From assembly GCA_019057815.1 (NCBI GenBank), contig JAHLWR010000024.1, positions 1 through 52,514 on the forward strand: DNA of 52,514 nucleotides, written 5' to 3'. Source of the DNA: Candidatus Heimdallarchaeota archaeon (lineage in GTDB: Archaea > Asgardarchaeota > Heimdallarchaeia > Heimdallarchaeales > Heimdallarchaeaceae). A program made the position numbers and the translations under genes. The notes below the pieces were generated by a model. The model searched no databases. It saw only the letters and a program-made list of their open reading frames with translations, and was not told where the DNA came from. The stretch's first letter is position 1, and each line of letters starts with the position of its first letter. Positions 23,456 through 33,016 of this stretch are shown here, one piece after another.

Positions 23456-23662
23456 ATGAACAAAATAAACATCGATGAAGTAGAATATATCACCGAAACC
23501 GCACTAACAATAAGGGAAAGCAGACGACGAACAACTGTTCCAAAAGAAATAGTAGAAGCATTGCACTTGAAAAACGGAGATAAAATCAGATGGTTATTAT
23601 TTGATGATGATCGAGTGATGATATCAAAAGTGAAGAAAAGAAGAAGAAGAAGAAACAAATAA
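23456..23662 (+). CDS. AbrB/MazE/SpoVT-family DNA-binding protein
   Basis: RTTVPKEIVEALHLKNGDKIRW. Confidence 0.85.
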   Translation: MNKINIDEVEYITETALTIRESRRRTTVPKEIVEALHLKNGDKIRWLLFDDDRVMISKVKKRRRRRNK

Positions 23663-23729
23663 TTTGATAGATTGAGAGAATTTATTGCACAAAACTATTT
23701 AATATAGAAAACAATTACTAAATAAGGAT

Positions 23730-24170
23730 TTGAGAGTTTTGGATAAGAAGGAGATAAATAAGGACTTCATATTCGATCGGATCGTAGAGGTTGAACAAAG
23801 ATTAAGTCAAATTAAACAACTAAAGAATACAAAATTAGAGGATTTTCTTAAGGATGACATTAGAAGAGATGCTTTAAAATATAGATTGCTTTCTTTAATT
23901 GAAGGTTTGGTTTCCTTATGCAACCATATTATCTCAAGGACAGAAGTTTCTCCTCCTTCAACTTATGCTGATTGTTTTAGAAAACTCTCAGGACTCGGAA
24001 TATCATCAGATACCTTAGTTGAAAAAATAGTCAAAATGATACAGTTTAGAAATATCTTAGCTCATCAATACTGGGTAATTGATGACGAAAAAATATACGA
24101 AATAGCACAGATTGATCATTCTTTTGTTAATGAATTCTTAAAAGATATTAAACAGTTATTGGTGAAATAG
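23730..24170 (+). CDS. HEPN (DUF86/HepT) RNase toxin
   Basis: PSTYADCF, FRNILAHQY (RX4HXY) motif. Confidence 0.92.
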   Translation: MRVLDKKEINKDFIFDRIVEVEQRLSQIKQLKNTKLEDFLKDDIRRDALKYRLLSLIEGLVSLCNHIISRTEVSPPSTYADCFRKLSGLGISSDTLVEKIVKMIQFRNILAHQYWVIDDEKIYEIAQIDHSFVNEFLKDIKQLLVK

Positions 24171-24171
24171 A

Positions 24172-24579
24172 ATGCAAATCTTTTATAGCTTAGAAGAAAA
24201 TGAAAAAGAGAAAATAATAACAATTATCAGTAATTTTCTTAACGAAAATAAAAACATAGAATTTGCTTACATCCACGGAAGTTTTGTCAACGCTAATTAT
24301 TTCAGAGATATTGATATTGGGGTATTTATTAGAGAAGATTGCATCCAAGAACTTGAAAAAGAGCTAGAGAACAACCTTTCCATTAAACTTACAGAGATAT
24401 TAAATTACGAATGTGACATTAAAATTATTAATAATTCTCCAATTCAATTTCAATATGCGGTCTTAAAAGGAAAACAGATATCCTGCAAAAATAAGGAATC
24501 TTTAGTTCTTTTTAAGGAAGAAATCTTTCTAAAATATCTAGACTTTAAACCGATAAGGGAACAATTTTTCGATAAATGA
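24172..24579 (+). CDS. Minimal nucleotidyltransferase (MntA) antitoxin
   Basis: FAYIHGSF...FRDIDIGVF (GS...DXD). Confidence 0.92.
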   Translation: MQIFYSLEENEKEKIITIISNFLNENKNIEFAYIHGSFVNANYFRDIDIGVFIREDCIQELEKELENNLSIKLTEILNYECDIKIINNSPIQFQYAVLKGKQISCKNKESLVLFKEEIFLKYLDFKPIREQFFDK

Positions 24580-26973: not shown

Positions 26974-27339
26974 TTCCAAAAAAAGAGCTGTTCTATAACC
27001 TGGATAAAATTCCTTTTACGTTTTTTTTTTACTTTCGTAAATATTTCCTCTTGATGAGCGATTTTTACTATTAAAAGGTATTACACCAGTTCTAATAGAG
27101 AAATACTACTTACTTTAATGTGCGGAACATGATTTGTACGGTTTGACGAGATGGAAACAATCACATGAAGCAGAGAGTACACCGTACAAAGAAGAGAAAA
27201 GAGGTGTTAGGTGGGGTGATACAGAATCATAGACTTTCAGAATGTTTTAAGAAAGATGAAAAATTATCATAAAGACCCAACAAATACAAGTTTTCACAAA
27301 TCTTATTAAATCTGCAACGAGATAGTACTTGAAAATATA

Positions 27340-27618
27340 TCATTTTCTATACATATTTAAAACTATAATCTTTCTTTTACTTTTAAATAACCGATACATA
27401 ACTCTGTAGTCACCTATTCTTATTCTAAAATAGTTTTCTTTTTCTCTATACTTACGAACATCATACTTGCTTTTGAGAGATTCTCCACGCTTCATATCAA
27501 GTATTATTTGTTTTACAGCTTCTATAATATCAGGAGGAATTTTGTTTCTTTTGTTTTCAAGTTTTTTCGTAAAAGATCTAGTAAATTCGAGTTCATAAGT
27601 GATTTCTACCCTCTCCAG
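27340..27618 (-). CDS. RelE/ParE-family toxin lacking a canonical start codon (absent from ORF track)
   Basis: Manual translation VEITYELEFTRSFTKKLENK...YDVRKYREKENYFRIRIGDYRVMYRL...IIVLNMYRK*; only CTG (27618) or GTA (27609) at the 5' end. Confidence 0.85.
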   Translation of the reverse strand: MERVEITYELEFTRSFTKKLENKRNKIPPDIIEAVKQIILDMKRGESLKSKYDVRKYREKENYFRIRIGDYRVMYRLFKSKRKIIVLNMYRK

Positions 27619-28143
27619 TTAGTTCCATATTTTATCGTTTTTCTTTAGTTCCTCCCAGCTAACCGTTTTTCCTTTCTTACATTGTTTTATTGCTTTTTTT
27701 ATTAATTTCGATTCTTTTTTCGATAATTCTTCATCATCATACGGTATTTCATCAATTTCTTCAAATAATCCTTTTTTTGTACTATCTGGTTCCATAATCA
27801 GTACTTTGTCTTCTGATAGAATTGCAGTGATTTTATCTCCAATCTCTAATTCAAATGCTTGTAATATTTCAAGTGGCATTTTTATATGCGATTCAGGTAG
27901 GATTTGTAATTGAAATTCTTGTATCGTATGAACTACTTCTTGTAGTTTACGTATTCTCTCTAGATAAATTATAAAGGAAGTTGGCTCAGGTTGATAAGTT
28001 AAACCTCTAGTTTTTTTAGTATAAACATATTTGCACATATTTGTATATTCCAGATCCATTATGTCTTTTTCTTTTTTGTCTTTTCTTTGTGACTCTTCAT
28101 CATAATTAACAGTTTGTATTTTACTCAATGTCATCACCTTCAA
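27619..28143 (-). CDS. Antitoxin-like protein: extended N-terminus, AbrB-like domain, RelB/ParD-like tail
   Basis: HIKMPLEILQAFELEIGDKI; DEELSKKESKLIKKAIKQCKKGKTVSWEEL; directly upstream of the RelE-like ORF. Confidence 0.75.
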   Translation of the reverse strand: MKVMTLSKIQTVNYDEESQRKDKKEKDIMDLEYTNMCKYVYTKKTRGLTYQPEPTSFIIYLERIRKLQEVVHTIQEFQLQILPESHIKMPLEILQAFELEIGDKITAILSEDKVLIMEPDSTKKGLFEEIDEIPYDDEELSKKESKLIKKAIKQCKKGKTVSWEELKKNDKIWN

Positions 28144-28738
28144 TTTCTGACAATACTCTATTTAATTTGCTAATTAATTTCTCAATTTCAAATTTACTTA
28201 ATGAAAGAACTATTCTTTCTTTTTCATATTCGCTTTTAAAATAATCTAGATAGAGATTTGCAAATCTTTCATTAATTTCCATTTCTTTTCCTTTTATCTT
28301 TCTAGTTAAAATTTCAAAAGTTGTATTTGAAAGCAGATGTGAGGGTCTATTTAGAAATGATATGATGAAATCCTTTATTTTTTGATCAATACTATTAATT
28401 ATTTTCAACATTTTTTCCTTTTCTTTTTCGTCTTTTATTTTTGGTTCCTCAAAATCACTATTTTCGAATATTTCATAGATTGCAGGAATTAGAGAACCTA
28501 TTATTATACAAACTTCTTCTTTATCTATCTCTTTTATGTTTTCGAAATAGTCAGATTCTTTAATTTTGATACCAAATCCTGTTTCAATTTTTTCTATAAT
28601 CAAATCATCATTCATAATTGCTTTAACAAATATATTTGCAATCTCCTTTACTGATTCGTCATTCACTTTAGATAATACAATTTCAAGTTTTGATAATTCA
28701 GATTCCTTATTTTCTCTTGATTCTTCTGTGTTTGACAT
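28121..28738 (-). CDS. Hypothetical protein, candidate COMMD-like (helical N-domain plus COMM domain)
   Basis: 205 aa; C-terminal strand-strand-strand-helix hydrophobic pattern matches the COMM domain by eye; SD-like aggtg upstream of the ATG. Confidence 0.55.
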   Translation of the reverse strand: MSNTEESRENKESELSKLEIVLSKVNDESVKEIANIFVKAIMNDDLIIEKIETGFGIKIKESDYFENIKEIDKEEVCIIIGSLIPAIYEIFENSDFEEPKIKDEKEKEKMLKIINSIDQKIKDFIISFLNRPSHLLSNTTFEILTRKIKGKEMEINERFANLYLDYFKSEYEKERIVLSLSKFEIEKLISKLNRVLSEIEGDDIE

Positions 28739-29086
28739 TACTACACCTAATAAAACCCATTTATTTAAACTTATTCACAAACAATGATAAGTCTTCAGAT
28801 AGTTACCAATAATATATTACATAAAAATAACTTAAAAAATATTATCTAAAATATCTCAACTCTTGAGTTCGTGATTATGAAAAGCTTGAAACAAGAATTA
28901 CATTCTTATTGAGAAAAAGATTTAGAGGAAATAGTGTTGTAAAGGAGTTATTGATTATAGAACGCGCTTTTTTATTCTAACTAAGTGGAAAGAAAAAAAG
29001 AAAGAATTGGGTTTTTTAAAGTGAATTCATTTAGTAGGACATTAAAAATCGTAGTTAAAGGAAATTTAAAAAAGAGAAAAGAAACA

Positions 29087-31689: not shown

Positions 31690-33016
31690 TAATGGCAGAA
31701 GTCCCCTTATTATCAGTGGGGGAGGGATGCTAGATGGTTTACTTTAGCTTTTTATAGTGAAAAAAGAACTAAGAGGATAGACTAATGCTAACATACAAAG
31801 TGCAACTGTACCCTAATAAACAACAACAGGCAAAACTTGTCGAACAGTTGGATATTTGTAGAAAACTCTATAATAAACTACTAGAAGAGTGCAAGAAAGC
31901 GCGAGAGAAGGGAGAGAAACTCACACAAAGCAAAACTCAATCGTTTATAGTGAGACTAAAAAACAACTCTATGCCTGAACTAAAAGAAGTTTATTCTAAA
32001 GTTTTACAGATGGTCAATCATACTTTGTGGGTAAATATCAAGAGTCTATCAAAGTTAAAAAAGAGTGGGCGTAAAATAGGTCATTTAAGGTTCAAAGGAA
32101 AGGGATGCTACAAAACTATTAACTACAACCAGAGCGGGTTCAAGATAGACGAGTATAAAAACAAGATTACTTTCTCTAAAATAGGAATTATCAATTGTAG
32201 AGGACTAAATAATAGATTAAGGAAAAACAAAATTAAGGGGATAATTCTCAAACGCTCTCAAACGGGTAGATGGTTCGCTAATATACAAGTAGAAAACACT
32301 CTAACAGATCTTCCTAAAACCAATAAAAGAGTGGGAATAGATGTGGGTGTTTCTTCGTTTATCGTCGATTCTGATGGTAGAAGAGTAGAGAACCCTAAGA
32401 ATATAGACAAACAATTAAAGAAAATTAAAATCGCTCATAGAATCCTCTCTCGTAAAAAGAAGGATTCAAAGAACTGGTTAAAAGCCAAGTTACAATTAGC
32501 TAAACTTTTAGCGCAAGTTACTAACCAACGTAAAGATTTCTTGCATAAAGTTTCCAGATTTTATGTTAGAAGTTACGACTTTATCTGTGTAGAAGACTTG
32601 AATATTACAGCACTATCACAGAAAGGTAACAAAAATAACAAGCGGTCACGCACTCTTCACCGTCACATTTTAGATGCTTCGTGGGGACAGTTCTTCAGCT
32701 ATTTATCTTATAAAGCTGTAAACGCTGATAAAAAAGTAGTTAAAGTTCATCCTGAAGGTACTACTCAAGAATGTTCTAGATGTGGGAGAATAGTTAAGAA
32801 AAACCTTTCAACCAGAACACACCTTTGTCCTTATTGTGACTTAGAGTTAGACCGCGATTATAACGCTTCAATCAATATTTTGAAGAGGGGTACGGGATGT
32901 ACCTCTTTACTTGTGGAGAACAGACCTCTGGTCACTATTAGCGCTTCTGCTATTGTTAGTGGTCAAGTCTTTTCTATGAATCAAGAAATTCCTACCTTAA
33001 GGTAGGAGTAGTTCAT
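31690..33016 (+). mobile_element. IS200/IS605-family (IS1341-type, tnpB-only) element; left boundary approximate
   Basis: Left hairpin tcccc/gggga at 31702-31723; right palindrome tcctaccttaaggtagga at 32990-33007 followed by gtagttcat. Confidence 0.8.
31785..33005 (+). CDS. tnpB: RNA-guided endonuclease TnpB
   Basis: YKVQLYPN HTH, GIDVG, VEDL, TTQECSRCG...CPYC Zn finger, DRDYNASINI; catalytic D-E-D intact. Confidence 0.96.
   Translation: MLTYKVQLYPNKQQQAKLVEQLDICRKLYNKLLEECKKAREKGEKLTQSKTQSFIVRLKNNSMPELKEVYSKVLQMVNHTLWVNIKSLSKLKKSGRKIGHLRFKGKGCYKTINYNQSGFKIDEYKNKITFSKIGIINCRGLNNRLRKNKIKGIILKRSQTGRWFANIQVENTLTDLPKTNKRVGIDVGVSSFIVDSDGRRVENPKNIDKQLKKIKIAHRILSRKKKDSKNWLKAKLQLAKLLAQVTNQRKDFLHKVSRFYVRSYDFICVEDLNITALSQKGNKNNKRSRTLHRHILDASWGQFFSYLSYKAVNADKKVVKVHPEGTTQECSRCGRIVKKNLSTRTHLCPYCDLELDRDYNASINILKRGTGCTSLLVENRPLVTISASAIVSGQVFSMNQEIPTLR

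Follow-up and report, generated by a model that had tools for sequence, protein, structure and literature searches.

RelE toxins cleave mRNA on the ribosome and are blocked by the tail of their antitoxin, and AbrB dimers repress their own promoter. In the TAC systems HigBAC, MqsRAC and CmdTAC, the antitoxin has a disordered extension to which a SecB-like chaperone binds; the chaperone keeps the antitoxin alive, and a phage protein out-competes it (bioRxiv 10.1101/2024.02.24.581848). COMM domains dimerise obligately and assemble into 8-10-mer rings (PMC13392464), and prokaryotic COMMD-like proteins of ~200 aa, with a helical N-domain and a COMM domain, have been described (PMC13392464; 9q6a/9q6c). 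The main text of that study calls their function unclear, links a Myxococcota branch to T6SS-like genes and mentions neither "toxin" nor "operon". A structural survey of Asgard archaea (PMC12962969) also contains COMMD-like proteins and reports their fold alone.

We analysed a window of 52,514 nucleotides (the whole stretch of DNA studied), contig C19 in the 3.7-Mb genome of a Candidatus Heimdallarchaeota archaeon; the Heimdallarchaeia are the archaea nearest to eukaryotes. Three adjacent genes encode a COMMD-like protein, an AbrB-type antitoxin with an N-terminal arm, and a RelE-family toxin. With TAC systems the cassette shares the tricistronic plan, a type II pair, a swappable translation-targeting toxin, an extra and probably disordered antitoxin arm and a presumably oligomeric third protein. 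In contrast to TAC systems, this third protein has a COMMD fold rather than that of SecB and is encoded first, not last; the arm is N-terminal instead of C-terminal, and the antitoxin is AbrB-type. Because it has no SecB, a reversed gene order and an N-terminal arm, the cassette is not a TAC member.

Prokaryotic COMMD-like proteins are the best structural match of gene 1, which is however just 14-16% identical to them, carries a beta-hairpin insert with an invariant GF in its N-domain, occurs as two paralogues in one genome and always heads a toxin-antitoxin operon. The archaeal RelBE pairs of M. jannaschii (3bpq) and P. horikoshii (1wmi) resemble genes 2 and 3 in toxin sequence, in the basic catalytic motif RIRIGDYR, in the order of antitoxin and toxin and in the acidic helical antitoxin tail, whereas in the cassette the antitoxin, which bears an AbrB core and an arm, is three times as long, the toxin has an AUC start and an extra gene lies upstream. 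A link to a family known from eukaryotic endosomal recycling, raised in the first-pass annotation, holds for the fold, which is shared with the COMMD1-10 ring of Commander/CCC (8f2r, 8p0w), but goes no further: the Commander ring is heteromeric and bound by CCDC22/93, the cassette shows neither such partners nor evidence of trafficking, and published trees place eukaryotic COMMDs nearest to Myxococcota, not Asgard (Liu et al., PMC13392464). Our literature search found no paper joining COMMD or the COMM domain with a toxin-antitoxin or anti-phage role. New here are the Asgard lineage, the recognisable AbrB and RelE parts, the two-way linkage, the toxin swap, the empty site and the conserved non-AUG starts.

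Organization of the locus and its gene products

All three frames lie on the minus strand, to which the coordinates of genes and their parts refer, and they overlap or abut as the first-pass annotation had placed them: gene 1 runs from 28738 to 28121, and genes 2 and 3 end at 27619 and 27340. Of the starts proposed there, 28738 for gene 1 stands, but 28143 for gene 2 and 27618 for gene 3 do not. Gene 2 (27619..28128, ~169 aa) most likely begins at TTG 28128, within the last codons of gene 1, because an invariant AGGTGAT box sits 4 nt 5' of a TTG, CTG, CTG, ATG or GTG codon in the five loci compared for their starts (window, L005, L006, L009 and L076). An in-frame ATG at 28134, overlapping this box, is a less probable alternative.

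Gene 3 (27340..27603) has no ATG, GTG or TTG near its 5' end and is therefore missed or shortened by ORF callers. All four RelE loci share the sequence GGAG(A/T)GGGT followed, after 4 nt, by ATC. The ribosome-binding site of the window toxin gene, GGAGAGGGT (27608..27616), lies between the gene 2 stop and the toxin start 15 nt past it. It is conserved in four loci, and L076 has it too, just where its sequence is cut. In two of the four RelE loci an in-frame TAA immediately precedes the ATC, which excludes both read-through and a start further upstream for these two. The most likely start of gene 3 is therefore this AUC codon (ATC 27603). Non-AUG starts are thus kept in RelE-class cassettes, with AUC for the toxin in 4/4 and UUG, CUG, GUG or AUG for the antitoxin; our literature search returned nothing relevant on AUC starts in toxin-antitoxin genes. 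Three other explanations were ruled out. An antitoxin-toxin fusion by stop-codon read-through is incompatible with the second in-frame stop 5' of the toxin in L005 and L009; beginning at the first internal ATG would cost the protein its first strand and helix, which are conserved; and a start-less pseudogene does not agree with the ATC and SD being kept at 30-34% protein identity.

Gene 1 (28121..28738) encodes an acidic protein of 205 aa with a net charge of -14. We compared its AF2 model (pLDDT 84.9, built from nine relatives) with known structures. The top 17 Foldseek matches in the PDB are all COMMD or COMMD-like; at their head stands 9q6a, a ring protein from bacteria (E 5.6e-6), aligned over the full length (209 columns), and the eukaryotic COMMD ring structures 8f2r and 8p0w match at E 6e-5 to 1e-3. 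Likewise, six COMMD chains rank first in VIA-align, where the score of 9q6a (Z 7.1, 175 aligned, rmsd 7.8) is middling on its own, and an Atlas search with the model leads to COMM clusters. The low TM-scores over the whole chain (0.3) would be explained by a different hinging of the two domains. The predicted COMM domain (residues ~133-200, 28139..28342) superposes on COMMD9 6bp6 with an rmsd of 2.0 A over 71 columns, and its strands E135-149, E154-167 and E173-181 and helix H182-200 are the three strands and C-terminal helix of the COMM type. The HN-like domain (residues ~12-130, 28349..28705) is modelled as five long helices with an inserted beta-hairpin (DSSP; residues 46-59, with invariant G54-F55), compared with the six helices of the COMMD HN topology.

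PF07258 (COMM_domain) does not match the window protein, the best member of its family reaches E 0.055, and the sole match to PF07258 in the whole genome is the gene 1 paralogue, a weak one (E 0.3). A family-profile search gave no match, a PDB sequence search with the gene 1 alignment gave nothing significant, and a BFVD fold search gave no match at E < 0.001. The absent PF07258 match is no bar to membership, because the published COMMD-like proteins came from structure. We accept gene 1 as COMMD-like, as the first-pass annotation had suggested, on the strength of its predicted structure, and by reference to the proteins of PMC13392464 we infer that it would form rings. Its dN/dS is 0.13-0.36 in three pairs and 1.49 in the L005/L009 pair, which has few synonymous changes; in most pairs, purifying selection acts on both gene 1 and gene 2.

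Gene 2 consists of a variable arm of 50-75 aa, an AbrB/MazE-like core and a tail. The AbrB score is weak, with PF04014 at E 0.084, under the cut-off, and homologues as good as 0.0019; the only PDB matches are MazE structures (2mrn, E 0.013). The core (residues ~75-117, 27784..27912) is predicted to form the swapped hairpin, beta-beta-alpha-beta-beta in an AF2 model of low confidence that comes from a shallow alignment (pLDDT 41.5, with residues 1-85 below 50). The arm (27913..28128, ~70 aa) is a poorly conserved candidate docking or addiction element, and its low model confidence suggests disorder. Tyrosine makes up 6.3% of the arm versus 0.8% of the rest of gene 2 and 4.3% of the background, with total aromatics at background level. 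The extra N-terminal region of about 70 aa noted at first pass held up and is present in 12/12 aligned gene 2 homologues, and no motif is common to the arms across lineages in this alignment.

The tail of gene 2 (27622..27783) comprises 54 aa, acidic and then helical. It is toxin-specific and occurs in RelE-class loci only, with 16 invariant columns over five RelE-class antitoxins; PIN-class antitoxins have a short, different tail in its place. The arm shows 52% identity and a dN/dS of 0.77, and the tail 89% identity and a dN/dS of 0.23. We infer that the 54-aa tail is the RelE-neutralising region; a sequence search of the PDB with the tail alignment gave nothing significant and matched no RelB structure.

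Gene 3 encodes a basic protein of 87 aa with a net charge of +14. It had been read as RelE, and the assignment is borne out by PF05016 (E 4.7e-6, 27.5 bits against a cut-off of 23) and by the archaeal structures RelE3 3bpq (E 1.7e-9) and 1wmi (E 3e-5); the motifs then quoted are present. Its paralogue exceeds the TIGR02385 cut-off. The basic catalytic residues and C-terminal aromatic of E. coli RelE are K52, K54, R61, R81 and Y87. R60, R62 and R67 of gene 3 are invariant and align with K52, K54 and R61, and a C-terminal Arg is present; the aromatic after that Arg is found in the L005 and L009 toxins and is missing in those of the window and L006. With its end at MYRK the window toxin falls a few residues short of its paralogue, and the L006 toxin is likewise short. 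RelE genes are weakly constrained (dN/dS 0.62 and 0.89). We suspect that the window copy may be attenuated, because the residues bearing the C-terminal aromatic are missing and constraint is weak. PADLOC profiles gave no match for genes 1 and 2 and a weak AriA match (E 0.004) for RelE.

Recurrence of the trio and exchange of the toxin

We collected 13 distinct gene 1 loci from six lineages (the window, L005, L006, L076, L009, L004, L073, L074, L092, L010/L075, L011, L012 and L015), in which L005 is the paralogous locus on contig C1 of the same genome; outside the window lineage the proteins are 23-38% identical to that of the window. The arm-bearing AbrB gene comes next after gene 1 in 13/13, overlapping or a few bases away. 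RelE occupies the third position in four loci and a PIN-like gene in eight, one of these genes being cut by the contig end; in L076 the toxin is cut off, with a RelE-type tail and SD present. A reciprocal search of 5.8 billion proteins and 400 Asgard genomes found gene 1 directly upstream of every strong antitoxin homologue, and the weaker matches are mostly short generic AbrB frames aligned over the core alone. Recurrence of antitoxin and toxin genes beside gene 1 homologues therefore holds in both directions, in a small sample, and the order of the three genes is more than chance, because it is found again in every homologous locus.

In eight sister loci the shared antitoxin core is thus joined to a PIN-like gene, as in the AbrB-PIN (VapBC) pairs. 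Unlike VapBC toxins, the PIN-like family (165-179 aa, Cys-containing; PIN_12 at E 8e-5, below Pfam cut-offs) is divergent and likewise found solely within the trio, behind the COMMD-like gene; a PDB sequence search with its alignment gave nothing significant. The earlier identification of the cassette toxin as RelE consequently applies to the window and three other loci, not to the cassette as such. As read from these loci, the comparison shows a constant unit, formed by gene 1 with the arm-and-AbrB part of the antitoxin, and an exchangeable unit, formed by the tail and the toxin, RelE or PIN. RelE-class gene 1 proteins form a single clade (95/95) in an unrooted tree with long branches, which is compatible with a one-off swap of tail and toxin; the antitoxin-core tree is too poorly resolved to bear on co-divergence.

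The family is rare. Six genuine relatives of gene 1 were found among 1.84 billion representatives, and its profile matches 2/400 Asgard genomes. PF07258 gave nothing above cut-off over the same 400 genomes, and the published Loki, Hel and Heimdall COMMD-like proteins are thus outside this sample. Pattern searches found no gene 1 or PIN relatives in viral contigs, no gene 1 in metagenome contigs and no RelE in genome contigs.

An imperfect palindrome, TTATCATTGTnTnTGnA (28774..28790), lies at the same place 5' of gene 1 in 4/4 RelE loci, and none was seen in PIN-class loci. Across the 3.7-Mb genome it occurs four times, and the two cassettes account for two of these matches. We regard this box as a putative operator or promoter element. 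A sigma-70 scan was at chance level; the sigma-70 model is ill-suited to archaea.

The cassette, as a unit of homology, spans 27324..28995, where it matches L006 at 82.5% nucleotide identity across 1674 nt; the flanks of L006 are unrelated to those of the window. Its GC content is 26.6%, versus 32.8% for the genome. It occupies a variable slot (26999..29076) between a sat/APS-kinase gene and the gene for a 184-aa helical protein. In G001, of the same genus as the window host, the flanks are 92-94% identical and the slot holds an unrelated 510-codon frame with an Lcl_C domain. A second comparison comes from Ca. Heimdallarchaeum endolithica (G007), of the same family as the window host (Heimdallarchaeia, Asgard), which carries ~1.97 kb with just the three genes at a site where G004, of its own genus and with flanks 85-95% identical, has ~10 nt. 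At the level of sequence these loci show that the trio moves as a unit. No recombinase gene lies within the cassette. Together, recurrence, toxin swap and empty site uphold the tripartite layout proposed in the first-pass annotation.

Possible roles of the COMMD-like protein

We propose a TAC-like role for the COMMD-like oligomer because the layout of constant and exchangeable units is that of TAC systems. By this analogy we lean, slightly, towards reading the cassette as a tripartite type II toxin-antitoxin module that is mobile, probably self-promoted, and has its antitoxin under the control of the COMMD-like protein, and with the same slight preference we take the protein to be a functional part of the module. 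The COMMD-like ring would hold or stabilise the antitoxin, most likely via the arm at its N-terminus, in the way that SecB acts on the ChAD tail. The trigger might be a viral or mobile-element protein that competes for the ring, or the cassette being lost; the antitoxin would then be let go and degraded, and the toxin set free. The weak AUC start would presumably keep the toxin level under that of the antitoxin. Direct binding of the arm is a tentative suggestion, clearly less probable than a functional role as such, and an antiviral trigger is a shade more doubtful still. The mechanism put forward at first pass, with the COMMD-like protein as sensor, scaffold or chaperone docked on the antitoxin N-terminus and with an antiviral role, is a proposal drawn from gene context and the TAC analogy. 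A predicted complex of two COMMD-like chains with antitoxin residues 1-130 (12-row alignments) scored 0.01 against a mark of 0.32, with the partner fold uncertain, and weighs neither for nor against arm binding. Against a functional role, linkage alone would also be expected if the toxin-antitoxin pair merely stabilised a passenger gene, and other prokaryotic COMMD-like proteins have no predicted contacts with their neighbours and occur in differing contexts (Liu et al., PMC13392464). The poor conservation of the arm and its background level of aromatics, the weak constraint on RelE, the shortened end of the window toxin, the small sample (13 loci, six lineages) and the lack of defence-island genes around the window cassette also speak against it.

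Such a passenger is the main rival explanation, although we think it rather unlikely. A self-sufficient AbrB-RelE or AbrB-PIN addiction pair would retain in the genome a COMMD-like gene that is co-transcribed with it and does something unrelated, with the shared promoter as the only tie. The mobility and patchiness of the cassette (2/400 Asgard genomes) agree with this, as do the complete DNA-binding core and toxin tail of the antitoxin and the T6SS-like or DNA-handling neighbourhoods of other COMMD-like proteins (PMC13392464). However, the pairing and order of genes 1 and 2 persist down to 23% identity and through the toxin swap, the arm-bearing antitoxin was never found alone or with another first gene in the searches made, and ordinary AbrB antitoxins lack such an arm.

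The other two alternatives fit less well. Third genes act as regulators in PaaR-PaaA-ParE and omega-epsilon-zeta, and a COMMD-like oligomer might likewise co-regulate transcription of the operon, or serve it as a nucleic-acid scaffold, together with AbrB at the upstream box, given that gene 1 heads the operon, that the box is conserved and that Pur-alpha/Whirly proteins are similar in fold to COMM (3n8b and 3nm7, weak structural matches). We consider this improbable: the protein is acidic, with its net charge of -14, AbrB is already a repressor, and the box was not seen in PIN-class loci; moreover, COMMD-like proteins appear to lack nucleic-acid-binding surfaces (Liu et al., PMC13392464). Least probable of all is a second antitoxin, in which the acidic ring would bind or cage the basic toxin directly. 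The charges are complementary (-14 and +14), but gene 1 stays constant while the toxin fold switches between RelE and PIN, and it is the antitoxin tail that changes along with the toxin.

If the TAC-like role of the COMMD-like protein is true, a second fold is able to control a toxin-antitoxin pair. The growth read-out of RelE/AbrB offers a direct test of whether a COMMD ring controls the antitoxin. At least these Asgard COMMD-like genes are cargo of a mobile cassette and not core proto-trafficking machinery (2/400 genomes with this profile), which bears on counting Asgard COMMD-like proteins among eukaryotic signature proteins. A wider and distinctly speculative extension would make COMMD-like rings the sensing or holding part of tripartite toxin-antitoxin immunity modules of a class not described before, with the peptide-gripping ring of Commander descended from such a mobile conflict module, present in Asgard archaea as well. 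The ring would then grip the flexible antitoxin arm, as CCDC22/93 linkers wrap the eukaryotic ring, until a viral protein displaced the arm and the swappable nuclease stopped translation.

Genomic surroundings of the cassettes

The neighbours of the window cassette are not defence-island genes, and the L074 cassette adjoins BRO/ORF6C genes. A plasmid- or provirus-like module with RHH-type genes (L006:386-4254) abuts the L006 cassette; it encodes a 791-aa MTBMA_p00010-like (plasmid-type) protein with winged-helix ends. The second COMMD-like/AbrB/RelE cassette of the window genome (L005:8813-10232; G000:C1:120812-122231) is 34% identical. It is bracketed by a 227-nt repeat (76%) and adjoins a patatin-like gene split over two frames, with weak matches to DS2 anti-phage and CBASS phospholipase proteins.

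In H. endolithica, a tyrosine integrase, an RHH-like gene, IS fragments and a DUF488-type pair (L004:396-4836) lie 3-7 kb from the cassette; they probably belong to a separate element, because a core aminotransferase gene intervenes. Further along (L004:11694-14930), a block of three genes (168, 105 and ~197 aa) is tandemly duplicated and is absent in the matching region of G004. At L010:3290-3400, directly 5' of the COMMD-like gene, a tandem 26-nt repeat occurs in at least four copies. A second overlapping trio directly follows the COMMD cassette of L015 (L015:4497-6254) and encodes a 234-aa mixed alpha/beta protein, a 173-aa helical protein and a PIN protein (PF01850, E 1.5e-7), in a cassette-like layout with another first gene and with no match to the COMMD-cassette profiles. 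In the window itself, a toxin-antitoxin-type trio of a short AbrB, a HepT-like HEPN and a Polbeta nucleotidyltransferase lies 3 kb off (23456-24579), and a TnpB-like ORF of 406 aa, belonging by eye to an IS200/IS605-type element, is found at 31785-33005.
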